Virus record (IMG/VR): IMGVR_UViG_3300033153_002015
Location: 1-20,168 of that record
Origin: a virus
Length of the DNA stretch: 20,168 bases
Reading direction: 5' to 3' (one strand)
Shown here in pieces: positions 1 through 12,493 of the stretch; positions within the stretch are counted from its first letter, which is position 1; each line of letters starts with the position of its first letter. The notes under the pieces were generated by a model. It searched no databases, was not told the origin of the DNA, and saw only the letters and a list, made by a program, of their open reading frames with translations. The position numbers and the translations under genes are program-made.

Positions 1-326
1 GTGAAGTGACGACGCACCCATTCGTAGATCGCGGCCTGGCCTTTGATGGAGACCTTGTGCCCGCCCCGCGTGCCGGACTCGACGACGCCAGCGTACGGCG
101 CATGGTTGAAGAGGATGACTATCGCACCCTTCTTCTTCACCTTGCGTATTCGCTTCACCTTCCACGCGGCAGCCAGCTCGTGTTGGTCGAACGGTGTCTT
201 GCCCGAGATGTACGTTCGGCCCCTCTCGGCGCTTACTGCAACGGCATGCTGGATGAGCTTCGCCGTCACACGACCGTGTCGCTTCAGCTCGGCCTTGAGC
301 CCTCCTGGTTCGATCGCGATGCCCAT
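1..326 (-). CDS. Partial CDS (start at 326, runs off the left edge): HK97 gp10-like head-tail / tail-completion protein
   Basis: It is absent from the ORF track because it has no stop codon in the window. My own minus-strand translation from ATG 326-324 is MGIAIEPGGLKAELKRHGRVTAKLIQHAVAVSAERGRTYISGKTPFDQHELAAAWKVKRIRKVKKKGAIVILFNHAPYAGVVESGTRGGHKVSIKGQAAIYEWVRRHF, open to position 1. The NHAPYAGVVESGT segment matches the APYA-x3-E-x-GT signature I associate with the HK97 gp10 family. The start overlaps the upstream stop as TGATG. Confidence 0.55.
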   Translation of the reverse strand, partial: MGIAIEPGGLKAELKRHGRVTAKLIQHAVAVSAERGRTYISGKTPFDQHELAAAWKVKRIRKVKKKGAIVILFNHAPYAGVVESGTRGGHKVSIKGQAAIYEWVRRHF

Positions 327-811
327 CAGGTCGACTCCTGACCTGAGCGGAGGAACACGACCCAGCCCATATCCTTCTCGCGATCCACGAACGGAGGCTT
401 GCCGACATTGAAGGTCTTCGTCCGGTTTGCCTGACCGTGCGCCTCTTTGATGCGCCAGAAGAAGCGCTGGTTCTTGCCCATCGACGCGCGCACGCCAATA
501 AGCTCTGCTTCGATGTACGACAGGGACACCTCGCGAAGACGAATCTCCCCGAGCTGATCGATGCCGCACGTTGCAAGCTCGTATCGGTACCCGTCCCAGA
601 TGTCGATGACCGGCTGCGAGGTAATCTCTGTCTCGACAGACGAAACGGATCCCTTGCCAACCACGCCACCCGACCACGTTTCGTGGACGGTGTAGGCGCG
701 ATAGGCGCGCACGCCGAACTCTGTGTGAAGCTCGTCGCGCAGGGAATCGATCACGTCGACAACGAGGCTGTCGACGAGAACATCCGAATCGAGTACGGCA
801 GAACCACCCAT
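326..811 (-). CDS. Hypothetical virion / head-tail joining module protein (161 aa)
   Basis: Intact ORF with ordinary protein-like composition. Its ATG lies 4 nt after the stop of the upstream gene, and its stop overlaps the next start. It sits between a structural protein and the gp10-like gene. I recognise no motif. Confidence 0.65.
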   Translation of the reverse strand: MGGSAVLDSDVLVDSLVVDVIDSLRDELHTEFGVRAYRAYTVHETWSGGVVGKGSVSSVETEITSQPVIDIWDGYRYELATCGIDQLGEIRLREVSLSYIEAELIGVRASMGKNQRFFWRIKEAHGQANRTKTFNVGKPPFVDREKDMGWVVFLRSGQEST

Positions 812-815
812 GGTC

Positions 816-1739
816 TTACGTGATGGTCATGCCCTTGAAGTTCATGATGCGCCAACCGGCCGCGGTCCACACCAGCTCGCCGGCTTCGAGAAGCGCATCG
901 AGGTCAATGCTTGTGCCGTCGGCGAAGTTCGCCGGGGTCAGCGTACCGTCTGGCGTGGTGGCTGCGAGGATGACCACGAACTTCTTGATCTGCCCCTCGT
1001 AGCGACCATCGGCCAGCGTGTACGCCTTCGTGCCGGTGACGGAAATCAGCGAGGTGAGCACGTCCAGGGACAGTGCCCCGCTCGTGACGGTCTCCAGGTC
1101 CACCGGCAGGTTTGCAACCAGCTCCGTGGAGAGACCCCTGTTGATGGTTGCCACCGGCGTGCCCGAGGTGTACGCGGTCGTATTGGCGCGCACGCGAGCC
1201 GCGGCGCCGCGGGCGACGACGACGGAGCCGGCAGCCGTGAGGGGGAGGCCGACGTTGTGCCAGTCGGAACCGGCCGCGCTGAGCGAGACCTGCATCTGCA
1301 CGGTAGCAGTGAAGGTGCCGCTCAATCCGATGACGCACTGTTCGCCGCCATCGAGTGCGGTTGCTGCGCCGGCCGCAACGCTGCTTGCAATCGCGAGCGT
1401 TCCAGACTTGAAGGTGCGCTCCAGTAGGTGCGCCGACAAGGACGAGTCGTGAAGGATTGTTCCGACGGGCGTGCCCGAGGAGTAGCTCGACACCGTTGCA
1501 CGCACGCGACGCGCACGGCCAGCTTCGAGAGTGCGCTGGCCGGTCGCAGTGGTGATGAAGATGTCACCAAGGGAATACCAGGCCGAACCGGAGGTATCCG
1601 GCGACCACTGGAACTGGACGCTGGCGTTATGGGTACCGCTCAGGCCGACTGTGATCGGCGAGCGAGGGGATACGGCTACCGGCGTCGACGACGTGTCGGT
1701 GACGGGGATGCCGAGATCTTCTGATACGTAGCTGGACAT
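816..1739 (-). CDS. Structural protein (307 aa) with two tandem copies of a ~65-aa beta-rich module plus a C-terminal domain
   Basis: SD GGAGAG lies 6 nt upstream of ATG 1739. There is an internal duplication: aa 29-95 ITVGLSGTHNASVQFQWSPDTSGSAWY...RRVRATVSSYSSGTPVGTI versus aa 135-199 CVIGLSGTFTATVQMQVSLSAAGSDWH...ARVRANTTAYTSGTPVATI. It lies in the head/connector gene block. Confidence 0.75.
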   Translation of the reverse strand: MSSYVSEDLGIPVTDTSSTPVAVSPRSPITVGLSGTHNASVQFQWSPDTSGSAWYSLGDIFITTATGQRTLEAGRARRVRATVSSYSSGTPVGTILHDSSLSAHLLERTFKSGTLAIASSVAAGAATALDGGEQCVIGLSGTFTATVQMQVSLSAAGSDWHNVGLPLTAAGSVVVARGAAARVRANTTAYTSGTPVATINRGLSTELVANLPVDLETVTSGALSLDVLTSLISVTGTKAYTLADGRYEGQIKKFVVILAATTPDGTLTPANFADGTSIDLDALLEAGELVWTAAGWRIMNFKGMTIT

Positions 1740-1823
1740 GGTTTGCTCTCCGTTGGTTTAATGTCCGCCCCCCGACGCCGACCAACACTGGAGATGTAGT
1801 ACCAGCGCCGAGGAGAAGACGAA

Positions 1824-2240
1824 TCACTTGCCGACGTAGTTGCCTCCACCAGAGGAACCACCAGGACCAGCGAACGAGCGAATGCGCGCGCCGCCGAACT
1901 GCCCGCCGCTGCGAGTCTCGACGCCAAGCATTCGAGCGAGGTCTTCAACCCAGCGGTCACCTTCAGCCTTCAACTGATTGGTCTCCTGCTGGCGTAGCTC
2001 GATCGAGCCGACTTTGTTTGCCTTCAACCGCGAGTGCGCGCCGCGCAGCTTCGTCTGGATGTCGGAGATGTTCGCGAGGATGCCGTCGTTCGCGAGTAGG
2101 TCGGTGACCTGAAGCTCGTGCTCGGGCTCCGTAGACAGCGCCGACATCGCCTGTTCGAGGCGGCTATCGGACTGGTGGAAGCGGGCCGACCATCCCAGCG
2201 CGCGCCGAACCGCAGCCCTTTGGGTGTCGGTGAGTGCCAC
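1824..2240 (-). CDS. Hypothetical head/connector module protein (138 aa), helical N-terminal part and Gly-rich C-terminus
   Basis: Intact ORF whose ATG lies 3 nt after the upstream stop. The sequence MALTDTQRAAVRRALGW...LKAEGDRWVEDLARMLGV...GGSSGGGNYVGK is protein-like. Function is not recognisable from the sequence. Confidence 0.7.
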   Translation of the reverse strand: MALTDTQRAAVRRALGWSARFHQSDSRLEQAMSALSTEPEHELQVTDLLANDGILANISDIQTKLRGAHSRLKANKVGSIELRQQETNQLKAEGDRWVEDLARMLGVETRSGGQFGGARIRSFAGPGGSSGGGNYVGK

Positions 2241-2243
2241 GAG

Positions 2244-2594
2244 CTACCCCTTGCCCTTACCCTTGCCACTGCCCTTGCCCTTTGCGGGCTTCGGCTCGTC
2301 CGGTACACCGGGCGGCTTCACCGACTTCGACATGGGCTTCGGGGCCGGCTTTGGGGGCGTCGGCTTCGGAGGCGTTGGCTTGACGACGTTCGAGACGTTC
2401 AGCTGCCCTGGCGTGGCCTTCGACTTCGCGACGAATCCAACGCGGTTGAACGCCTTCTCGTAGCAGATCGGGCCGACGCATGACTCGCCTGGCTCACTCG
2501 TGTAAACCGTGGGAGGTCCGCCGGGCGCATTCCCGATCTCCAGTCGCAAAGTTCCCGCGCTCGGATTCAGGTACTTCTGCATGGGGATGCTCAT
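2244..2594 (-). CDS. Small protein (116 aa): ~55-aa N-terminal domain plus a Pro/Lys-rich and Gly/Lys-rich low-complexity tail
   Basis: An AGGAGA motif lies upstream of ATG 2594. The tail reads KPTPPKPTPPKPAPKP...PGVPDEPKPAKGKGSGKGKGKG, encoded by short imperfect tandem DNA repeats at about 2245-2400. Confidence 0.6.
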   Translation of the reverse strand: MSIPMQKYLNPSAGTLRLEIGNAPGGPPTVYTSEPGESCVGPICYEKAFNRVGFVAKSKATPGQLNVSNVVKPTPPKPTPPKPAPKPMSKSVKPPGVPDEPKPAKGKGSGKGKGKG

Positions 2595-2630
2595 CGTGCG
2601 TGGATCTCCTGTGTCGGTGAACGAAAGGGT

Positions 2631-2668
2631 GCGCGAGAGCCCGAGAAGGAAAAACCGGACTCTCGCGC
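2631..2668 (-). terminator. Strong hairpin (13 bp including one G.U) between the 108-aa and 116-aa genes. Candidate partial terminator or attenuator
   Basis: Minus strand: GCGCGAGAGTCCG-GTTTTTCCTTCT-CGGGCTCTCGCGC, followed by ACCCTTTCGTTC, which is only a weak T-run. It starts 14 nt after the TAA at 2682. Confidence 0.4.
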
Positions 2669-2681
2669 GAGGGGGTGTCGC

Positions 2682-3008
2682 TTACTTGAGGGTCTTGTCG
2701 ATGCCGCCGGCCGCCATGACGATGCCGCCAGACGTGGTCGCAGTCTGGTTGATGCGAACCTTCTTGAGCCCAGCCGGAAGCTGGTACCAGGCAACCGCCG
2801 TGAGACCAGCAAGGCTGTTCCCGAAGATGTCGTCCAGTGCAGCGAAGTTCGTCCCGTCGACGCTGCCTTCTACGGTGAAGGTGCCAACGAAGGAGGCGGT
2901 CTCCTCGTAGACATTGACGCAGACCGGATCGAGGTTCTCGACGTTGACCGCCGAGGAAATCTCGACCGCGTCGGTCTCGCTGGTCAGTCCGTACATGTGC
3001 TTTGACAT
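2682..3008 (-). CDS. Putative capsid decoration / auxiliary head protein (108 aa). Carries a third copy of the module repeated in the 307-aa protein
   Basis: SD AGGAGAG lies 7 nt upstream of ATG 3008, immediately downstream of the major capsid gene. FVGTFTVEGSVDGTNFAAL...LKKVRINQTATTSGGIVMA parallels GLSGTFTATVQMQVS...DW...RVRANTTAYTSGTPVATI. Confidence 0.65.
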   Translation of the reverse strand: MSKHMYGLTSETDAVEISSAVNVENLDPVCVNVYEETASFVGTFTVEGSVDGTNFAALDDIFGNSLAGLTAVAWYQLPAGLKKVRINQTATTSGGIVMAAGGIDKTLK

Positions 3009-3034
3009 TGGTGTTCTCTCCTGATGAACCGAGC

Positions 3035-3075: not shown

Positions 3076-4140
3076 TTACGCAGCGAGGTTGGTGATGTAG
3101 CCGCACGCGTTCGGGCGTTTGACCATGATCTGCGGGTAGCAGTAGAGGGCGAACTTGAACGCGTCGCCCGTGATTGCGAGCGGCTGAATGCGCGCGTAGA
3201 GCTTCGACTTGTTCTTGCCGAACTGCTCTTCGGGGGTACCGGCGAGGCCGATCGTTCCCATGGCGCGGTTCATCACGTCAGGGCTGTCGATGAGCTGACA
3301 GATCTTCACGTGGCGCGAGTTCAACGCGGTGACCTTCTGCACGGGATGCAGAACGTCTTCGATGACCGGGATGCCGTCGAACTCCAGCACCTGGTAGCCA
3401 CCGTCTAGCTTGATGACGGTGCCATCGTTGCGTCGGACGCTGTCGGTGTACCGGCGCTCGGCCTGGTACGCGAGACCGAGCTTTTCGTGCTGGACCGGAT
3501 CGGTGATGAAGATGTCGGGACGCTCACCACTCGCCGAGTAGATCACGCGGCGCAGTTCACGCATAAGCGTGAAGGCGTTCGCCTGGAAGTCTCCAGCTCC
3601 AGCGTCGACCACGTTCCCTTGCCACTGCGCGACACCCGAACGATCGATGCCGGCGTAGATGCCGGTGTCGCCGATGGCGTCAACGGTACCAGCACCGAGG
3701 GATCCGTAGAGCCCGTGCATGTTGTTCGTGGCGCCAGTGCCGGTGTAGATGTCCGCTGCGATGGCGCGCGCGAGACGCTCCACCGAATCACCAAGCTCGT
3801 CAACGAGCAGCGCGGCAAGCTCGGCGGGGTTGCCGGCGGCGCGGGCAGCTGCCATCGCCTTACCAGTGACGCTGAAGGCGTCGTGGTAGGTGCCGTACTG
3901 GAGAACGGCGGCCGACTTGGTGTCGTTGTTGAAGGTTGTGACGTCGGCGCCATCGGAGATGACGGCGGTGGTCGGAGTTGCGGTACCCGTGCGAACGGAC
4001 CACTGAACGTTCTTGCCTGTGCCAGGCGAGATGTCCAGCACCTGAGCGGCGACACAGGAACGGTTGATCTGATTCGCGATCTCATCGAAAAATAGTTCCG
4101 AGAGGGTCGCGTCGATGGTCGAGAATGAAACAACAGCCAT
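3076..4140 (-). CDS. Major capsid protein, HK97-fold, P22-coat-like (354 aa from the ATG at 4140)
   Basis: It lies directly downstream of a scaffold-like gene. ATG 4140 has SD GAGG with a 5-nt spacer (ACGAGGCACGCATG). The GTG at 4203 that opens the longer track ORF has no SD and sits inside a hairpin. By memory the sequence resembles the P22 coat family: ERPDIFITDPVQHEKLG versus P22 YFFNPQDYKKAG, and C-terminal FALYCYPQIMVKRPNACGYI versus P22 IALWYGVNATRPEAIGV. Confidence 0.85.
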   Translation of the reverse strand: MAVVSFSTIDATLSELFFDEIANQINRSCVAAQVLDISPGTGKNVQWSVRTGTATPTTAVISDGADVTTFNNDTKSAAVLQYGTYHDAFSVTGKAMAAARAAGNPAELAALLVDELGDSVERLARAIAADIYTGTGATNNMHGLYGSLGAGTVDAIGDTGIYAGIDRSGVAQWQGNVVDAGAGDFQANAFTLMRELRRVIYSASGERPDIFITDPVQHEKLGLAYQAERRYTDSVRRNDGTVIKLDGGYQVLEFDGIPVIEDVLHPVQKVTALNSRHVKICQLIDSPDVMNRAMGTIGLAGTPEEQFGKNKSKLYARIQPLAITGDAFKFALYCYPQIMVKRPNACGYITNLAA

Positions 4141-4393
4141 GCGTGCCTCGTAAATGTTGGTGGGTTGCAGGGTCCGCGCTGTTCGCTGCGCTGGCGTGCT
4201 CACCGAGGTGAGTTATGCAACGTGCGTGTTGCCTCCGTGCAACCCAGTCGAGGCCGGGTGTACGCAAACCATCCGCCCCCTTTCCGTTCGTGTCAAGTTA
4301 ACGAACGCAGCCGGCCGCACCACTTCACGAAGAAGCGATGCGGCCGATGATGCCGTAGGTATGGCTTGCTGTACCGATTCGGCGTCTTAGCCG
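4141..4393 (-). promoter_or_regulatory. Structured ~250-nt leader between the scaffold and capsid genes, containing four hairpins
   Basis: There are perfect or near-perfect inverted repeats (plus-strand coordinates). 4313-4345: GGCCGCA...TGCGGCC with an inner CTTC/GAAG stem. 4285-4307: CGTTCGT-9 nt-ACGAACG, with a TTGACA in the loop on the minus strand. 4228-4243: GTTGC-6 nt-GCAAC. 4199-4212: CTCAC-CGAG-GTGAG. No convincing ORF is present. Confidence 0.4.
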
Positions 4394-5193: not shown

Positions 5194-5418
5194 TTAACTT
5201 GGTCTATAGCTGAGCAGTTCGTCAAGGTACGTCTTCTCTGGCGTCATATCGATGTCCCAGTCTTCGGCTAGAATCTCCAGCCCGACCGGGTCGTCTTGAC
5301 TGCGCCAGATGACGATCCACTCGTCTTGCGTTAGCGGTCTCTTCAGCGACTTGTAGTACCGCTCTGCTGCATCCAGGTCGTTGCGTGGCATGTCCACGAT
5401 GTTCAGATTCTTCGCCAT
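5194..5418 (-). CDS. Small acidic protein (74 aa), translationally coupled to the giant MuF protein. Candidate cognate inhibitor or immunity protein
   Basis: Its ATG overlaps the giant gene's TAA by 1 nt (TAATG at 5420-5416). By my count it has 16 D/E against 9 K/R. Sequence: MAKNLNIVDMPRNDLDAAERYYKSLKRPLTQDEWIVIWRSQDDPVGLEILAEDWDIDMTPEKTYLDELLSYRPS. I recognise no family. Confidence 0.6.
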   Translation of the reverse strand: MAKNLNIVDMPRNDLDAAERYYKSLKRPLTQDEWIVIWRSQDDPVGLEILAEDWDIDMTPEKTYLDELLSYRPS

Positions 5419-8400
5419 TATGGTCGGCTCTTCTTCTTGGCGGACGCCAGTGCATCGCGCATTGCTTTTCGCTTATCCTTCGGGAACAGGACGATGAACG
5501 CGTCGGTGAATGCGTCGGCGCCGTCGTGCCTGTCCGTCGACTTCTTCATGTCACGGGAGACCCTTGTCAGGATCTCGAAGGCGTCGTCGCGCGACACATC
5601 ATGCGATGCAGCAATGCCGTCAGTGAGGGTATCGATCCAGGTGCCATACGATCCACCGTTTCGCTGCATGCTGCGCGCTACCCCGTAGTACCTGTGCATG
5701 ATGTCGCGCGCGGAGACCTCGGTGACGACCTCCTCGACGATCTTGCCGTGTCCGCGATACGCCTTCGTGCCCATGTTGCCGTGCCCATGAACCGCTTCGT
5801 GCACGATGGTGCGCATGCCCTGCGAGTTGTCGTACAGCTCTTTGCCTGGATGTTCTTTTATCTTGTCGAGCGATGCGGTCATCTTCTTCAGCAGCTTCAG
5901 CGTCTCCTCACCCTTCCTGTGGTACTCCCTGCTGAAGACGGCACGCCTCTTCTTGTCCTCGGCTTCTGTGAAGTTCGGGTGGTTCTTAAATGCATCCAAC
6001 AGCTTCGTCTGGTTGCGGTGCCATCCGGTGCGTTCCTTGACCGCTGCACGGTGCGCATCGATGTCGACACGTGCTCGCACGCTGAGCTTGCCGAACGCCT
6101 TGAGATCTGCGCGCGACTTCTTCGCCAGAGCTGGCTTGGCGAACTGCTTCGTGAACTTCTTCGCCTTCTTGATTTGCGTATCGCGAATATGGATTCGACC
6201 GTTCCATGCGTGCGTACCCAGCGCACCGCGCGGGTTCTTCTGAATCATGATGTCGTCGACGTCTTGCGGTCGCTTGTGCAAGCCATCGAGGTCGAGGACG
6301 TCGTCGATGCTCTGACGTACCAGAGTCCAGTCGCCACTCTCGAAGCCTGCGCGCGTGTTCGTTGCGCGCGACGCAACGAGGGCAACAGACTCGGCTCGCT
6401 CCTTGGGAGTCATTGCCGCGGCGACGTCTTTCATCTTCTGCCGCGCTTCCTTCAGTAGCTTCCTGTTCTTTGGCGACTCGGCGATCTTGTTCAGATCGGC
6501 GATGTCAGATTCAAGGATCTTCTTCCGCGCCTGGTCTTTCCACCTCCACCTCTTCTTGTACCTGATCTTGTCCAGCTCTTTGTCGAGTGGCTTCAGCTCG
6601 GCATACAGTCGATCGAAGAGCTTCTTGAAGTCGGAGGATACCTTGACCATCTCCTTCTTCCGCTTTGCGGGCGTGTCGAGGTCGACCGGTCGCTTCATCT
6701 TCTTCCCGGCGGGCTTGCCGGGCACCTTGTCGTTCTGCTCCTTGGTGGCGTCCGGGTGGATAGTGATCTCAGGGGCTGGCTTGCCCTTCTTCTTCAGGCG
6801 GTACCCGCGGATACGCTCGCGCGTGAGCCGTGCCTTCCGCTCACTCTTGCTCTCGCCAGGCAGCCACACCTTGCCGAAGCTCGTGCCCTTAGGAAACACC
6901 TTCGCCTCGACGACGCTGGTGTCGGGCTCGGGCTCTTCCTTCTTCGGCTTCACCTTCGTGTGGCGACGCCAGAAGCTGTCGATGTCCTTCTTGCTTGTGC
7001 CGTCGTATAGCAGCACCGCCATGCCTGTGGTCGCATCAGTGACCCAGAATTGAGGCTTCTGTTTGCTGTCGTCTACCCAGGCACGGTGAACCGTGAACTC
7101 GGCGCCCGTGAGCTTGCGCCATACGGTGATACCGTCCGCCGGTACCCGCGACCTGAACTTCACGGGCTTCTCGTGCTCCTTGTCGGCGTGCTCGTATTCG
7201 CTCCAGAACGCTGCGACGTCTAAGCTGCTAGTTGCGTCGTAGGTGCGTACGCGTTTGCCACGTTCGCCGATGAGGGAGAAGAGGGGCCTCCCTCCTTCAC
7301 GGTCGTAGTCGTGATCTACCCTGCGCCTCTTCTTCGTCCCCTTGCGCTGAACCATAAGCCCGCTATCTGGGACGCCCGGCACGCTGTCGACGGCCTCCGG
7401 GTACAACTTCGTCGGCGTGTGCTTGAACGGAAGATAGGTGCTCCAGAAGCGAGACAGCGCCGCGATGTCGTCACCCCTCCATCGAACAGATACGGCCTTC
7501 GCGCCGTCAGCTGGTCGCAGTACGAACCATGGCCCCTTCTTCTTCTCCTCGTCATCCCATCCGCGCGTGACGACATACTCGCGGGCGAACCTCTGCCCCC
7601 ACACTGACTGGCCATCGGTCGGCGCCGTGGAGTGGAACGAGTCAGTCGCTGGCTCGATCGGGTTGTATGTTTTCCAGAACGACTTGACGTCCAGCTTGTC
7701 CGTAGCCAGCCAGCTACCGTACACGCGAACGCCTCCGTCGATTGGCTCGACTGCGAAGACTGGAAATTGCTCTTCGGCATCGGAGAAGCTGTGCCGCACA
7801 ACATACTTGCTGCCTGTGATCTTGTTCCAGACGATCTGGTTTTTCTTCGGAGCACTCGCTAGCGGCTTGCCTCCGACGGGCTTCGGTGGCGGCTTGACCT
7901 CGCTCTTCGAGTAGTGGCTCCAGAACATGGCGACGCCGCTCTTCGTGTCACCACGCAGCCGCTCTGCCTGCGAAGGGCCGCCCGACACGACTAGCCACTT
8001 GCCGCCGTACACCTTCGCGCGTTTCACCACGAGCTTCTTGCCGGTGTCCCTCACCCATACCGTAGATCCGTCCTCCGGTGCGTTGGCATCCCACTCGGTC
8101 TCTTCCTTCTCGGGCTTCTTCTCGGTCTTCTCCTTCGAGTACCCCTTCCAGAACATCAGGACTGCATGCGCAGCTGAGCCGCGGTACTTCTGTGACTCGC
8201 CGCCCCTCTCGTTCTTCGCGAAGAACCACAATCTGCCGTCGGCGTCGGTCTCGCGAACGACGGTGAACTTCGAGCCGTAGCGCCTCCCCCACACGGTCAT
8301 GCCGTTAGTGGGTGCACCCTTCGCCCACTTCTTGGGTGTGCGGCTGAACAGTGACCAGAATGTTCTAATATCGTCTGGGGCGTCGCCCTCGTAGAACCTC

Positions 8401-9959
8401 GTTGTCGCACCGCCGTCGACGCGCAGTGCTTGAAATATCGGATTCTGCTTCTTGGCGTCGCTGTACTGGTGGAGGATTTCCCACTTCTTCCCGGTCTTCT
8501 TCGACCAGACGAAGCTACCCTTCTTTGGCGCGTTCGCGTGGAACGGGATCGGCTTGAGCTTGTCCGGCTTGGTCTTCGTGTGGCGATCCCAAAACAGTTC
8601 GACCTGTAGCTTGTTGTCGCCTGGGTACTTGCCGACCTGGCGTGTCTTGTCGCGAACGACGATCCAGATCCTGCCGTCGTCTTCGGTCAAGCGCTTCGTT
8701 GTGCGGCGCTCGCCGGTCTTGACATCCCATACGACCTGACCATCGAACGGCGCACCCGCAACCCACTCTCGCTTCTTCTTCGGCGGCGGCTTCGGTGGCG
8801 CGGCTACCTGTTCCTTGTCGGTTGCATGAGGGTGAATGGTGTCATCGGGTATCAGTAGCCCCTTCTTCTTCGCGCGATACTTCCTTATGCGCTCCTTGGT
8901 CATCCGCGCCTTGCGTGCCGCCTTGTCTTCGCCCGGCAGCCAGACCTTTCCGAAGTTGGCGCCGCTTCGCTTGTGCGGCGGCTTGTCGAGGTCGGGCTTA
9001 ATCCTTGGCGCCTTCGGTAGCAGGTTGCCTGGATGCGGCTTACCTCGGTCGCCGGATTCTGGCGGCGCACCTTCGGCGTCCATCTTCCAATCCTCGTGCC
9101 ACGCCACGATCACACATCGGCAATTGGGATGGGCCGGCGGTTCGATGTGCCGCGACGTGTACGACTTCTTGGCCCCTCGCCATTTGCCTACGAACTCCTC
9201 GTCAACCGCCCTCACCTGACCATCGAGGCTCTTGCACTGCGGGCACCGCCGCCAGTCGTACGCAGCATCCCACCGGTTCTTTATGCCGGGGTCGACCTTC
9301 GCGATCTCTCTGATGCCCTCCTTGTGATAGACGTTGTATGCGTGCATCACCTCGGTGCGTGCCACCATCGACGCGCGCCGCGAGAACTGCCCGAACACGC
9401 CCGGCATGTTCCGCTTCAGCCGTTCACCTGTTTCGCGAATGGTCTCGCCCTTCACGCGCCCGACCGCAAGCTCTTGAACGAGCCGCTTGCGGATGTCGCC
9501 AGAGTAACGCCGAGCTGAGCGGGGGAAGCGCTTCAGTACCAAGCTGTCGCCGCGCGCGAGCACGATCGCCTCGTCCATGGCGACCGAGTTCATCTCGCCG
9601 TCGAACAGATGCCCGAACCGAAGCATCTCGTCTTCGACGTTCTTCATCGACAGAGACGCAGCGTCCTTCGCGCTCAGGTTCAACCCTTCGACAAGCGCTG
9701 GCTCTGTCTCCTTCAGTGTGTTGAGAGCAGAGCGAACCTGTTGCAGCGCGCTACGGAGCTTCTGCGTGGTGAACCTCTTGTCCCCGTCCTCTTTGTCGAG
9801 CCACTTCTTCAAGTCCTTGAGAAGCTCGGCACGGGCCTGCGCGAGGATGGGTGCCACCTTCCTGGCTACCGGCGTAGGAAGCCCGTCCACGGCTGCCGCT
9901 GACCGTTGCAGGACAGCCTGGTACTCCCTGCGCTGCTTGCCGGTGATTTTGCGCGCCAT
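5418..9959 (-). CDS. Giant (1513 aa) MuF / SPP1 gp7-family head morphogenesis protein. It is fused to an 8-unit repeat array and a C-terminal HExxH (zincin-like) domain, i.e. a polyvalent virion protein
   Basis: The N-terminal ~290 aa carry the MuF signature: RRASMVARTEVMHAYNVY...NRWDAAYDWRRCPQCKSLDGQ...IEPPAHPNCRCVIV. Eight ~70-aa repeats span aa 398-1005. HEAVHGHG is at aa 1387-1394 (HEAVH = nt 5787-5801). The gene sits in the canonical portal-to-MuF-to-scaffold slot. Confidence 0.9.
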   Translation of the reverse strand: MARKITGKQRREYQAVLQRSAAAVDGLPTPVARKVAPILAQARAELLKDLKKWLDKEDGDKRFTTQKLRSALQQVRSALNTLKETEPALVEGLNLSAKDAASLSMKNVEDEMLRFGHLFDGEMNSVAMDEAIVLARGDSLVLKRFPRSARRYSGDIRKRLVQELAVGRVKGETIRETGERLKRNMPGVFGQFSRRASMVARTEVMHAYNVYHKEGIREIAKVDPGIKNRWDAAYDWRRCPQCKSLDGQVRAVDEEFVGKWRGAKKSYTSRHIEPPAHPNCRCVIVAWHEDWKMDAEGAPPESGDRGKPHPGNLLPKAPRIKPDLDKPPHKRSGANFGKVWLPGEDKAARKARMTKERIRKYRAKKKGLLIPDDTIHPHATDKEQVAAPPKPPPKKKREWVAGAPFDGQVVWDVKTGERRTTKRLTEDDGRIWIVVRDKTRQVGKYPGDNKLQVELFWDRHTKTKPDKLKPIPFHANAPKKGSFVWSKKTGKKWEILHQYSDAKKQNPIFQALRVDGGATTRFYEGDAPDDIRTFWSLFSRTPKKWAKGAPTNGMTVWGRRYGSKFTVVRETDADGRLWFFAKNERGGESQKYRGSAAHAVLMFWKGYSKEKTEKKPEKEETEWDANAPEDGSTVWVRDTGKKLVVKRAKVYGGKWLVVSGGPSQAERLRGDTKSGVAMFWSHYSKSEVKPPPKPVGGKPLASAPKKNQIVWNKITGSKYVVRHSFSDAEEQFPVFAVEPIDGGVRVYGSWLATDKLDVKSFWKTYNPIEPATDSFHSTAPTDGQSVWGQRFAREYVVTRGWDDEEKKKGPWFVLRPADGAKAVSVRWRGDDIAALSRFWSTYLPFKHTPTKLYPEAVDSVPGVPDSGLMVQRKGTKKRRRVDHDYDREGGRPLFSLIGERGKRVRTYDATSSLDVAAFWSEYEHADKEHEKPVKFRSRVPADGITVWRKLTGAEFTVHRAWVDDSKQKPQFWVTDATTGMAVLLYDGTSKKDIDSFWRRHTKVKPKKEEPEPDTSVVEAKVFPKGTSFGKVWLPGESKSERKARLTRERIRGYRLKKKGKPAPEITIHPDATKEQNDKVPGKPAGKKMKRPVDLDTPAKRKKEMVKVSSDFKKLFDRLYAELKPLDKELDKIRYKKRWRWKDQARKKILESDIADLNKIAESPKNRKLLKEARQKMKDVAAAMTPKERAESVALVASRATNTRAGFESGDWTLVRQSIDDVLDLDGLHKRPQDVDDIMIQKNPRGALGTHAWNGRIHIRDTQIKKAKKFTKQFAKPALAKKSRADLKAFGKLSVRARVDIDAHRAAVKERTGWHRNQTKLLDAFKNHPNFTEAEDKKRRAVFSREYHRKGEETLKLLKKMTASLDKIKEHPGKELYDNSQGMRTIVHEAVHGHGNMGTKAYRGHGKIVEEVVTEVSARDIMHRYYGVARSMQRNGGSYGTWIDTLTDGIAASHDVSRDDAFEILTRVSRDMKKSTDRHDGADAFTDAFIVLFPKDKRKAMRDALASAKKKSRP
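6945..8768 (-). repeat. Protein-level tandem array: eight diverged ~67-73-aa repeats inside the giant MuF protein
   Basis: Approximate units are 8768-8565, 8549-8331, 8330-8124, 8099-7899, 7868-7653, 7640-7422, 7394-7182 and 7160-6945. The shared pattern is AP-x-DG-xx-VW...TG..(F/Y/W).V.(R/H)...(W/F).(V/F)...(Y/R).G...(V/I)..FW..(Y/H). Examples are APFDGQVVWDVKTGE...VELFWDRH, APTNGMTVWGRRYGSKFTVV...VLMFWKGY and VPADGITVWRKLTGAEFTVH...IDSFWRRH. Confidence 0.85.
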
Positions 9960-9962
9960 AGG

Positions 9963-10283
9963 TCAGTCGATCGGGATGAACTCTCCGCTCTCCTCGTCGA
10001 ATGCGTACCGGCCAGGAGGTAGATCGATCGATGCGTCGTCGACGGTGAGTTCGAGCTGCATCACGGTGATGGGGATGTGGATCATCATCTGGCTCGGGTT
10101 GTCGGGGTCGAACGTCACATCGATATCCGGCGTTTCCTCGACACCTGCCTCTTCCAGCCAACCAGACAACGACTCCATCATCCGCTGCGCGACCAAGTCA
10201 GGCGTGACGACGGTACCGACCAAGTCGGCGAGACCTTCGCGCATTTGCTTTGCCAGGCGCGCAACTGCAATCTCGTCGCTCAC
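9963..10283 (-). CDS. Small, strongly acidic protein (106 aa) between the portal and MuF genes
   Basis: Its GTG start overlaps the portal stop as GTGA, and its stop lies 3 nt before the MuF ATG. It is rich in D/E (..EEAGVEETPDIDVTFDPDNP..DDASIDLPPGRYAFDEESGEFIPID). Function is unknown. Confidence 0.65.
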   Translation of the reverse strand: MSDEIAVARLAKQMREGLADLVGTVVTPDLVAQRMMESLSGWLEEAGVEETPDIDVTFDPDNPSQMMIHIPITVMQLELTVDDASIDLPPGRYAFDEESGEFIPID

Positions 10284-12100
10284 TTCTTCCTCGTGTCGAC
10301 CATCTTCTTGCGGCCAACTTCAGGCTTCTCTGGTGGAGCCGGGGGCTTGTCGTCGTCCTCGTCCTCTTCTTCGAGGTCCTCTTCTTCGATGTCACCAGCT
10401 CCAGGGTGTACTTCGATGCGGTCCATCATTGGCGAGAACTGGTCGTCAGTGATGTTCATCATCAGCTCGGTCTCGATGTCGTCGAGGTCGTCTGCTGTTG
10501 CGTTATCCCCGAGTGTGACCTTCGCCAGCGCGAACTTGAACAGGCGCTGAAACGTGGCCGATGGAATCGAGATGCCTTCGAGGGTGACCCCCTTCTCGAT
10601 CTCATCTGACGCTTGCGTCTCATCGAACTTGTCGCAGCCAGCGGCGTTCCACTGCGGAGCAAGGTCGGCTTCGCCGCGCACACACGAGACCATCCCGTAC
10701 ACCTTCTCGGCGAACGAGCGAAGCAGAACGCCCAGCGCATCGAGGACCGTGGTCTTCGACGACTTGTCTTGCTTCTTCGACTCGCCGCTTCGCCCCACGG
10801 TCGCCGCGTTCGTGTCGACAGCCAGGGACATCTGATGCGTTACGCGATGCATTTCGTTCTTCGTGTCGACACAGCTCGCGCGCGCTTCGCTGAACGGCCC
10901 CGGGTCAGGGCCGACGAACTCGGCGCGATCCTGGTGACCTCGCTGCTGGACGTACCCCTGCCCCCTTGCCTGCGTCGTCGCGCGTTCCGGGTTCTCCTGG
11001 TTCGCGGATACGCCAGGCACCTGCGTTCCGCCCATGGACGTCTCTTCTGGTCCGTGGAATTCATACAGCTCTGGCAGTAGCGATTGCAGCTCGGCCCAAG
11101 CCAGGCCGCTGCGCTTGTTGAAGTGCTCGCGCGCCAAGCCTTCGAGCTTCGCCATGGCCCACAAGCCTTCGGGCACAGTGAGGCGAACCAGCGGTACCTT
11201 GCCCGTGGAATACGTGCCCTCATTGACCAGCCGCACAAGATCTGTATCCTTGGGCTTCTCGTCGGCCTTGTGGCGCAGCTCGTATCGAGACCAGCCATTC
11301 GTGTCGTAGTAGGTCCACCGCTGCGTGTGCACGTCGCGCGACGAGAACAGGTTCTCGCGCTGGGCTTCAACCGTGTGAACGAGCGCCCATTGCAGGGTGT
11401 TCGATTCATCCTCCTCCCAGTCGATGACGCTCTCCGGTTCGATGCGTACGGCGTAGGCGTCGAGTGCACCGCTCATCTTCTGGTCGAGCCTATCTGCGTA
11501 TACCGGCTCTTCGTTTCCGAGGCCGCGCATGTCTGGAAGGTCGACGAGTACCCATGCTGTTCGACAGATGAGCGAGTTCAGCATGCAGTCGCGCAGCTGT
11601 TCGTTGAACGGGGTCACCTCTGAATCGACGTGCGACGTGTCCTCGTGGAAGGCGTCGTACCATGGAGGGTATGAGCCCTTCTCCTTCGTCGAGTCGTTCG
11701 TGTCCATGGTGATGGGTGTGTTGCACAGCATCGACACGATGTCGTCGATGATCTCCCCGGCGTATGGCGTGTAAAAAGCGCGGTTGCATCGCTCTTCGTA
11801 GACGCTCGGGTGCTCGTTGCGGTGAGGGGGAAAGACCTCCTTCATCACAACAGGATCGTCCATTAGCATCTTGCCGCCGGAATACAGCGCGCGCAACCGA
11901 CGCCAGTACCCAGCGGCGTAGTCCGGGTGCGTCACCTTCAGCAGTCGATACGGGATGGCGCCAGGCCCGCCCTCGGTTTCGGTCTGCGTGCCCTGGGGGA
12001 AATCTGCGTGCCGTGACTCGGCGCGTTTGATGGTGCGGTGTCGAGCTTCATTGTCGGAGATGCCCTCTCCGCTGCCCTGCATTGAATCGTTGCCTGCCAT
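10280..12100 (-). CDS. Portal protein (606 aa)
   Basis: Its size and its position between TerL and MuF fit a portal. The N-terminal segment YEERCNRAFYTPYAGEIIDDIVSML resembles the conserved (Y)xxRxxRAxYxNxxxxxV opening of DUF4055-type portals, as I remember it. It has an acidic C-terminal tail (EEEDLEEEDEDDD). Confidence 0.8.
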   Translation of the reverse strand: MAGNDSMQGSGEGISDNEARHRTIKRAESRHADFPQGTQTETEGGPGAIPYRLLKVTHPDYAAGYWRRLRALYSGGKMLMDDPVVMKEVFPPHRNEHPSVYEERCNRAFYTPYAGEIIDDIVSMLCNTPITMDTNDSTKEKGSYPPWYDAFHEDTSHVDSEVTPFNEQLRDCMLNSLICRTAWVLVDLPDMRGLGNEEPVYADRLDQKMSGALDAYAVRIEPESVIDWEEDESNTLQWALVHTVEAQRENLFSSRDVHTQRWTYYDTNGWSRYELRHKADEKPKDTDLVRLVNEGTYSTGKVPLVRLTVPEGLWAMAKLEGLAREHFNKRSGLAWAELQSLLPELYEFHGPEETSMGGTQVPGVSANQENPERATTQARGQGYVQQRGHQDRAEFVGPDPGPFSEARASCVDTKNEMHRVTHQMSLAVDTNAATVGRSGESKKQDKSSKTTVLDALGVLLRSFAEKVYGMVSCVRGEADLAPQWNAAGCDKFDETQASDEIEKGVTLEGISIPSATFQRLFKFALAKVTLGDNATADDLDDIETELMMNITDDQFSPMMDRIEVHPGAGDIEEEDLEEEDEDDDKPPAPPEKPEVGRKKMVDTRKK

Positions 12101-12103
12101 GAT

Positions 12104-12493
12104 CTACCTCTTACCCGGTCGGGGCTTGCGCTTTTTGGTCTTCGTCGTAAGCCCGGCGTCCACGGCGAGCTTCTTCAGTTTGACCTCGGTGAGGTCCTGC
12201 ATCTCGACGATGTCATGCATCTGAGTTGTGGCCATGTCGATGCCGGAGAAGTCTCCGGCGCCGCACACGATGCACAGGCCATTGTCTCCCATGATGCACT
12301 CGGGGCCGTCGAGCGGCACGTTGCACGGTGTCGGGCCTTCTGGGATGTCCTTCACACGGATGAGGGGGAACGGATTCGGTACCCGTGCATCCTGGTCAAC
12401 ACGTCGAGCCGCGCGTGCGCCACCTCGCCGATCTGGGGCTGGTGGGGTACCGCTGATGTTGACCGTCTCCTTGATTCGCTTGCCTCGTGCCAT
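12104..12493 (-). CDS. Small protein (129 aa) with a Cys4 cluster and a C-terminal HeH/SAP-like basic motif
   Basis: It lies between TerL and the portal. The Cys cluster is C57-x8-C66-x7-C74-x2-C77. The C-terminus DLTEVKLKKLAVDAGLTTKTKKRKPRPGKR resembles the helix-extension-helix (SAP / Rho-N-like) motif. Confidence 0.6.
   Translation of the reverse strand: MARGKRIKETVNISGTPPAPDRRGGARAARRVDQDARVPNPFPLIRVKDIPEGPTPCNVPLDGPECIMGDNGLCIVCGAGDFSGIDMATTQMHDIVEMQDLTEVKLKKLAVDAGLTTKTKKRKPRPGKR

Follow-up and report, generated by a model that had tools for sequence, protein, structure and literature searches.

In gluzincins of the thermolysin/neprilysin type, an HExxH motif is followed on the next helix by ExxxD. 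Zincins may also be encoded together with a protein that restrains them: the serralysin inhibitors Inh and AprI act in trans and are encoded next to their zincin. Among phage proteins, two described groups come closest to the one reported here. The available text of Iyer, Burroughs, Anand, de Souza and Aravind (2017; PMC5512222) gives the zincin-like metallopeptidase (MPTase) core of polyvalent proteins as three strands, an HExxH helix and a Glu helix. Jamet et al. (2017; PMC5576092) found an open reading frame (ORF) of <150 aa following 89% of MuF toxins, as against 25% of short MuFs, and a metallopeptidase domain in 20% of MuF toxins. We analyzed the C-terminal domain of a giant MuF protein, together with the 74-aa acidic ORF that follows its gene, in IMG/VR record IMGVR_UViG_3300033153_002015. 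Our window was this entire Joint Genome Institute contig, of 20,168 nt and 61% GC. The domain is an unannotated zincin-like clade of phage head-delivered proteins, and it comes with two previously undescribed small partner families, which we term S1 and S2.

The string HExxH alone proves nothing, because 5.5% of shuffles of the giant protein contain one; it is conservation across a family that makes the motif real. The C-terminal 410 aa had no match in Pfam, PHROGs or a PDB sequence search and nothing emerged from a word-indexed homologue search; it took an exhaustive HMMER search of 1.84 billion representatives, queried with aa 1183–1513, to uncover the family, as 166 homologue clusters at E ≤ 1e-3. 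The family comprises at least 166 clusters at 50% identity. HExxH stood at the aligned site in 150/150 of the homologues listed. Two independent alignments, of 102 and 81 sequences, agreed on six invariant columns: H1387, E1388, H1391, E1410 (+19), E1414 (+23) and Y1438 (+47). E1409, T1413 and R1418 were at least 90% conserved in both, and Y1401, G1405 and the G of WNG (in the consensus GxHxWxGxI) reached that level in the 102-sequence alignment only. The family signature can be written RT(L/V)VHExxHGx(G/S)P-x5-Y-x-G-x-G-x3-EE-x2-TE-x2-AR...GSY.

An earlier, sequence-only reading of this stretch had located HEAVH correctly and had proposed conservation of HExxH among homologues as a check, which the family passes. 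Its fit of the motif to HExxHxxG, a metzincin-like pattern, proved coincidental. The window sequence is HEAVHGHGNMG, yet across the family G, S and M all occur at +3 after the second His, and +6 has no conserved His; the conserved Gly (+3) and third His (+6) of metzincins are both lacking. Judged from its sequence, the domain signature is gluzincin-type, not metzincin-like. H1387 and H1391 are the predicted zinc ligands, E1388 the predicted catalytic base and E1410 the predicted third ligand, so far as metal ligation can be read from the motif. By analogy with other gluzincins, Y1438 is a candidate transition-state stabilizer.

The family appears confined to uncultivated, mostly high-GC phage contigs. 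A tblastn search with the window domain and with P0009, a consensus-like member, found no match in 50,697 phage genomes, a megablast of the whole region found none, and a pattern scan of 185,579 reference genomes turned up no family member and no prophage copies.

An AlphaFold2 model of the domain built with the 102-sequence alignment had a mean predicted local distance difference test score (pLDDT) of 94.4 and a predicted template-modeling score of 0.89; the model from the single sequence (pLDDT 52.6) was unusable. The predicted topology runs from N-terminal helices (domain residues 3–42) through a three-stranded sheet (55–57, 66–68 and 74–76), a helix, a long variable helical hairpin, the HEAVH helix and the Glu helix to four to five further helices. 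HEAVH falls at the C-terminal end of model helix 189–209, and E1409, E1410 and E1414 lie on helix 221–243, directly after it. The variable hairpin (residues 94–187) is inserted ahead of the HExxH helix and is missing in distant members. The model has the features that mark a zincin of the gluzincin type: HExxH on a helix, a Glu on the next helix ~18–25 residues after the second His, and a sheet of at least three strands with a preceding helix.

The small ORF is bound closely to the giant gene. Its ATG (5418–5416) shares nt 5418 with the giant gene's TAA (5420–5418), forming TAATG, and the two genes are co-transcribed and translationally coupled; the sequence-only reading had noted both this junction and the acidic composition (16 D/E against 9 K/R), and both hold. 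A word search with the 74-aa protein matched only itself. We nonetheless take it to be a real gene, because protein-level homologues occur in 13 other loci, with 28–42% identity for the six that were aligned with the window S1. S1 relatives sit downstream of the closest HExxH homologues (loci L001, L002 and L004), and the 74-aa protein shares with these relatives the pattern D-x-P-RNDL...Y...LT...L-x-LQDDP..FE..W; the motifs of S1 are D-x-P-RNDL, a conserved Y and (L/S)QDDP. A profile search added P0154, found directly after a 619-aa MuF-HExxH protein in L003. S1 proteins are ~60–75 aa long, and 9/10 carry a net negative charge (−2 to −15). Neither S1 nor S2 had a Pfam match that reached the cut-offs, XisH, Prok_Ub and the rest being noise, and two scans of metagenome contigs with S1 profiles gave no match.

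Viral contigs were scanned both for the domain and, on its own, for the small protein, using a profile of each. S1 was found in 14 distinct loci (the window, L001–L008, the L015–17 group and L034–L037), and in 14/14 a HExxH-domain gene was adjacent, including four loci that were found by the S1-only search. Spacing between the two genes was usually −8 to +31 nt. The S1 of L034 (3995–4162) lies ~970 nt downstream, behind three reverse-strand small genes that resemble an inserted moron. By contrast, both S1 and S2 were missing from 8/8 distinct loci with MuF only. In one of these, L020, which has the portal (phrog_145) and major capsid protein (MCP; phrog_9953) families of the window, the MuF stop overlaps the scaffold start; in another, L024, 132 nt intervene after MuF. 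Co-occurrence of the small ORF with the domain was a second check proposed by the sequence-only reading, and the counts, 14/14 against 0/8, support it.

It is the HExxH gene that the small gene follows, not the scaffold gene, because in L003 a 521-aa gene and three genes on the reverse strand stand between the pair and the genes for scaffold and MCP. Five loci (L014, L018, L019, L010 and L011) have S2, a second and unrelated small family, in place of S1; in L014, L018 and L019 it overlaps the HExxH gene by 4 nt. Every readable HExxH locus had S1, S2 or a positional analogue. In a rough neighbor-joining tree of MuF, short MuFs were interleaved with HExxH+S1 proteins, which argues that the domain and its partner are acquired or lost together. 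On this pattern of co-occurrence, S1 is a dedicated partner of the HExxH domain and the two form a functional pair.

A Pfam scan of 149 homologues found MuF in 74; the other partners were one portal fusion and ART, NUDIX, 2H phosphoesterase, GNAT and InPase domains. The same scan found no trafficking domains of type VI secretion, type VII secretion, contact-dependent inhibition or Rhs systems. Fusion partners of the domain are therefore head-delivery and effector domains, and because they include MuF and portal, the domain is attached to proteins inside the capsid at the portal. The portal fusion, in L010 (1769–4597), joins Phage_portal_3 to HExxH by way of a long linker rich in A, K and E; downstream of it lies a separate MuF gene. 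In L010 and L011 a 125-aa P-loop gene (kinase-like, GAPRAGKTT) follows the portal fusion, along with the separate MuF gene. L034 encodes a 984-aa MuF-HExxH-...-ART polyvalent protein (69–3023), whose C-terminal region looks ART-like by eye, of the R-S-E type (YRG...STT...EEELL). Inteins were found inside MuF in four homologues (Pfam Intein_splicing, 4/68 homologues). The intein of L005 (2280–4994, on a contig shared with L021 and L033) splits MuF within the HPNC|RC motif of a 904-aa MuF-HExxH protein.

We favor, with moderate confidence in the picture as a whole, a capsid-delivered zincin with a dedicated small partner, S1 being a stoichiometric inhibitor or escort. The MuF domain would anchor the giant protein at the portal, so that it is taken into the capsid and exits together with the DNA; this packaging and ejection is suggested by the MuF/portal context, by PMC5576092 and by the available text of PMC5512222. 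The C-terminal 330 aa would be a gluzincin-like zinc metallopeptidase, previously unannotated, that binds metal and is proteolytically active, with E1414 and Y1438 as accessory residues. As an inhibitor or an "immunity-like" escort, S1 would bind the domain stoichiometrically as it is made and keep it inactive in the producing cell or within the capsid. Only once ejected into the next host would the peptidase go to work, with host proteins, its own chain or both as substrates.

Several observations weigh against this picture. No Pfam zincin model matched the window protein or 68 homologues, even at E ≤ 5, and none matched in the 149 homologues scanned. Profile searches of the PDB by phmmer and hmmsearch, with the full (A2) and core (A9) alignments, gave noise only. 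Foldseek searches of PDB and BFVD with the AlphaFold2 model returned no match at E ≤ 1e-3; the only zincins listed, and hence the best, were vibriolysin and LasB, with a template-modeling (TM) score of 0.24 and E > 2. The coiled-coil hairpin dominated the Foldseek search, which explains the lack of a significant match. With no significant sequence or structure similarity to a characterized zincin, superfamily membership rests on motif, spacing and predicted topology rather than on demonstrated homology. On the side of the partner, S2 abuts the HExxH gene on the opposite strand in L010 (4594–4848, minus strand) and in L011, so co-translation does not hold for every locus. In L012 and L013 the small ORFs are positional analogues only, and hhalign linked neither these nor S2 to S1 beyond the control level. 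S1 and the domain showed a weak and uninformative mirror-tree correlation (rho 0.20, p = 0.18). The loci sampled number ~20 and were drawn from pattern-based searches. That S1 binds the domain, and in which direction it acts, we infer; so closely coupled to a late structural gene, S1 could as well be a chaperone as an inhibitor.

A chaperone, the alternative that the sequence-only reading itself had raised, is accordingly one of those that survive best, if a rather doubtful one. S1 would then be an assembly or packaging factor that folds or solubilizes the basic C-terminal domain, or escorts the long MuF fusion into the procapsid, and is released without regulating catalysis. The 1-nt overlap would give stoichiometric co-expression with the late structural gene, and S1 would be needed only where the extension is present, as observed; protection may moreover be unnecessary in a producing cell that lyses anyway. 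S1 is acidic and the window domain strongly basic (+23), which would suit charge shielding, but in the S1-bearing loci L003, L005 and L015 the domain carries almost no net charge or a negative one, so shielding is not general. Nor would a chaperone readily account for two unrelated small families, S1 and S2, tracking one catalytic domain, as is typical of toxin/antidote pairs, or for the persistence of a partner with portal fusions and with the polyvalent protein of L034, whose assembly routes differ.

Another tentative alternative, which we likewise think rather unlikely, is that the zincin works chiefly on itself: as an autoprocessing protease it would cleave its own chain in the head or after ejection, not host proteins, freeing the repeats (or ART and NUDIX in relatives), and S1 would time the cleavage. 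Autoproteolysis has been proposed for the MPTases of polyvalent proteins, for example P1 DdrB, in the available text of PMC5512222. The domain does occur in multi-domain proteins with further effectors (MuF-HExxH-...-ART in L034, and the NUDIX, 2H, GNAT and InPase fusions), a copy tethered to the portal, as in L010, would need cleavage for its release, and long K-rich and low-complexity linkers flank the domain. Most family members, however, are just MuF plus the domain, with nothing else to release, and no conserved cleavage motif was identified. Autoprocessing is in any case compatible with a capsid-delivered zincin held latent by S1, and does not exclude it.

The capsid-delivered pair can also be drawn in a stronger form, which we offer as speculation and consider unlikely in its full detail. 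The HExxH domain and S1 or S2 would constitute a phage-specific protease/antiprotease module in which the small acidic protein plugs the zinc site in trans. A carboxylate of its invariant RND or QDD motif, for instance, would serve as an "aspartate switch", the small protein being co-packaged or stripped off at packaging, and the protease, close to the portal, would be armed only on ejection to cut a host defense or housekeeping protein.

The sequence-only reading had proposed an effector/immunity-like pair of the MuF polymorphic toxin kind. The pairing of an effector with a partner stands; the label of polymorphic toxin does not, since this is a conserved domain that other toxin systems do not share. 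As a classical MuF polymorphic toxin, the domain would be a swappable, growth-inhibiting toxin used in competition, with S1 protecting lysogens, and this we regard as quite improbable. The arrangement of MuF, extension and small ORF does match that in PMC5576092, where metallopeptidase domains are a known class of extension, and domain and partner do come and go as a unit across the MuF tree. Yet the domain diverges about as much as MuF does: no close relatives were found, and it is 27–32% identical where MuF is 23–35% identical, a roughly parallel divergence. It never occurs with the trafficking domains of other polymorphic toxins, the genome scan found no prophage copies, and S1 is coupled to a late gene and so would not be expected to be expressed in a lysogen.

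We rejected as very improbable the reading in which the domain is the prohead maturation protease of the window phage and S1 a scaffold-related factor. The region between the window's portal and MCP genes did yield no protease of the S78, U35 or S49 kind. However, L015 (XkdF-type S78_2) and L014 (Mu-like_Pro, Mu gpI-type) carry the domain with a prohead protease of their own beside it; L020, which matches the window in its portal and MCP families, has neither the domain nor any protease, so that this head type matures without one; and in L003 S1 stands apart from the scaffold gene.

ORF calls with Pfam and PHROG matches placed the whole head module on the minus strand, with the giant gene between the portal gene and the scaffold-like and MCP genes (Table 1).

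Table 1. Coordinates of the head module, the giant protein and its small partner gene in the window
Feature	Position (nt)	Strand	Basis or remark
Major capsid protein gene	3076–4203	−	Head module; phrog_9953
Scaffold-like gene, 252 aa	4394–5152	−	Next after the 74-aa ORF
74-aa acidic ORF, family S1	5194–5418	−	16 D/E vs 9 K/R
Giant minor head protein gene, 1513 aa	5418–9959	−	ORF and translation
Conserved C-terminal zincin-like domain, aa 1183–1513	5421–6413	−	Homologue clusters and AlphaFold2 model
Y1438 in GSY motif	5646–5648	−	Invariant Tyr
EEVVTEVSAR, aa 1409–1418	5706–5735	−	E1410 and E1414 invariant
HEAVH, aa 1387–1391	5787–5801	−	Invariant in 102 + 81 aligned homologues
GTHAWNGRI, aa 1248–1256	6192–6218	−	Predicted strands 2–3 of small sheet; consensus GxHxWxGxI
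Lys/Arg-rich helical linker, aa 1077–1182	6414–6731	−	Composition
Motif A copy 2, aa 1028–1076	6732–6878	−	C-terminal flank of repeat array
Eight tandem repeats, ~65–80 aa each, aa 399–1005	6945–8765	−	Hidden Markov model i-E-values 1e-21 to 1e-27 per copy
Motif A copy 1, aa 336–384, FGKVWLPGE...TIHP.AT.KEQ	8808–8954	−	49 aa, K/R-rich
MuF (Phage_Mu_F) core, aa 164–284	9108–9470	−	Pfam PF04233, E=8e-16
Portal gene	10280–12100	−	Head module; phrog_145
Large terminase gene	12506–14020	−	Head module

The giant protein is ordered as MuF, motif A, eight repeats, a second motif A (A'), a K-rich helical linker and the HExxH domain. The N-terminal MuF domain assumed by the sequence-only reading is borne out by Pfam, and PHROG head-morphogenesis families match over aa 17–307. 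The protein owes its "giant" size to an insert of ~2.1 kb between MuF and the protease region, made up of the eight repeats and the bracketing motif A copies. The repeats have the signature AP-x-G-xx-VW...tG...FW-x-Y, and the motif A copies are also apparent in the DNA as repeat D1 (104 nt, 70% identity). The array is either a spacer or an unknown module between MuF and the protease domain. The same insert modules occur at lower copy number in three other family members: P0040 (2+2), P0099 (one repeat) and P0143 (two motifs). The lysine-rich character that had been read into the last ~440 aa is real, with 60 K and 40 R (100 K+R) against 62 D/E in the last 439 aa. The Lys/Arg-rich linker itself lies outside the conserved domain, because homologue alignments begin at ~aa 1183.

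A scaffold-like gene comes next after S1, or directly after a short MuF, in several loci (L001 8631–9314; L006 4768–5091; L007 4733–5605; L020 6566–7447; and the window). These scaffold-like proteins share the motif (V/M)N.A(V/I).(T/S)H(L/M).R, and a scaffold PHROG (phrog_206) matched only the L020 copy. Two small ORFs on the minus strand flank the portal gene of the window, one of 106 aa (9963–10283) and one of 129 aa (12104–12493); neither had a Pfam match below E=0.1 or a PHROG match. The gap between portal and MuF is occupied in L002 and L004 by a gene of 191–193 aa instead. Just upstream of the terminase genes lies a gene for a 424-aa fusion of a ParB-N-like domain with a DNA methyltransferase (14610–15884, minus strand; phrog_498, E=6e-105).

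Proteins that a phage injects along with its DNA are its first weapons to arrive in the host, and few have been characterized. The present family, of at least 166 clusters and attached to MuF and portal proteins, has no representative in Pfam, PHROGs, the PDB or 50,697 cultured phage genomes. Together with its dedicated partner gene, the HExxH domain makes a two-gene module that lends itself to clear-cut tests. Should the partner prove to be an inhibitor, it would represent a new class of metallopeptidase protein inhibitor and an example of phages keeping a packaged enzyme latent; if the protease targets host defense proteins, it would add another anti-defense mechanism.

How, then, does the pair compare with known systems? 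With the thermolysin/neprilysin gluzincins the domain shares the spacing and predicted helix placement of HExxH and E(+19)xxxE, as well as an invariant downstream Tyr. It differs from them in having Glu, not Asp, as the second acidic residue and in a C-terminal subdomain that is all-helical and unrelated; the M4 peptidases vibriolysin and LasB reached the TM score of 0.24 noted above. S1 resembles Inh and AprI in being a small protein, encoded beside a zincin, that is proposed to block the zincin in the producer. Unlike them, it is only ~60–75 aa long and has no sequence relationship to them, and for S1 inhibition is at this stage a proposal.

The MuF polymorphic toxins of Jamet et al. (PMC5576092) likewise have an N-terminal MuF, a C-terminal enzymatic extension, and a small downstream ORF only when the extension is present. 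Theirs come from Firmicute prophages, whereas the window family comes from uncultivated phage contigs; its domain is not shared with other toxin families, nor is it variable between relatives at the distances sampled. We considered the Ct_MAD of Jamet et al. as an identity for the domain and rejected it on its description, Ct_MAD being derived from the C-terminal region of COG2369. We take that region to be the C-terminal (PBECR) domain of Mu gp30.

The MPTases of phage and plasmid polyvalent proteins (PMC5512222), which include MPTase-PolyVal (PF18818) and the ArdC C-terminal domain, are set apart by several features. PF18818 matched neither the window protein nor 68 homologues at E ≤ 5, and the window family lacks an Asp at +3 after HExxH. 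The family has its own EExxTExxAR...GSY signature, a variable coiled-coil hairpin insert, and a dedicated small partner gene, of a kind that the available text of PMC5512222 does not mention for the MPTases. Insofar as that text describes them, the two groups are alike in having a three-stranded sheet, then the HExxH helix and a helix with the Glu, and in a conserved His at the end of strand 2 (H1250 here). They are alike, too, in occurring in head-delivered proteins, in their MuF and portal fusions, and in the ART, NUDIX, 2H and InPase domains with which they co-occur.

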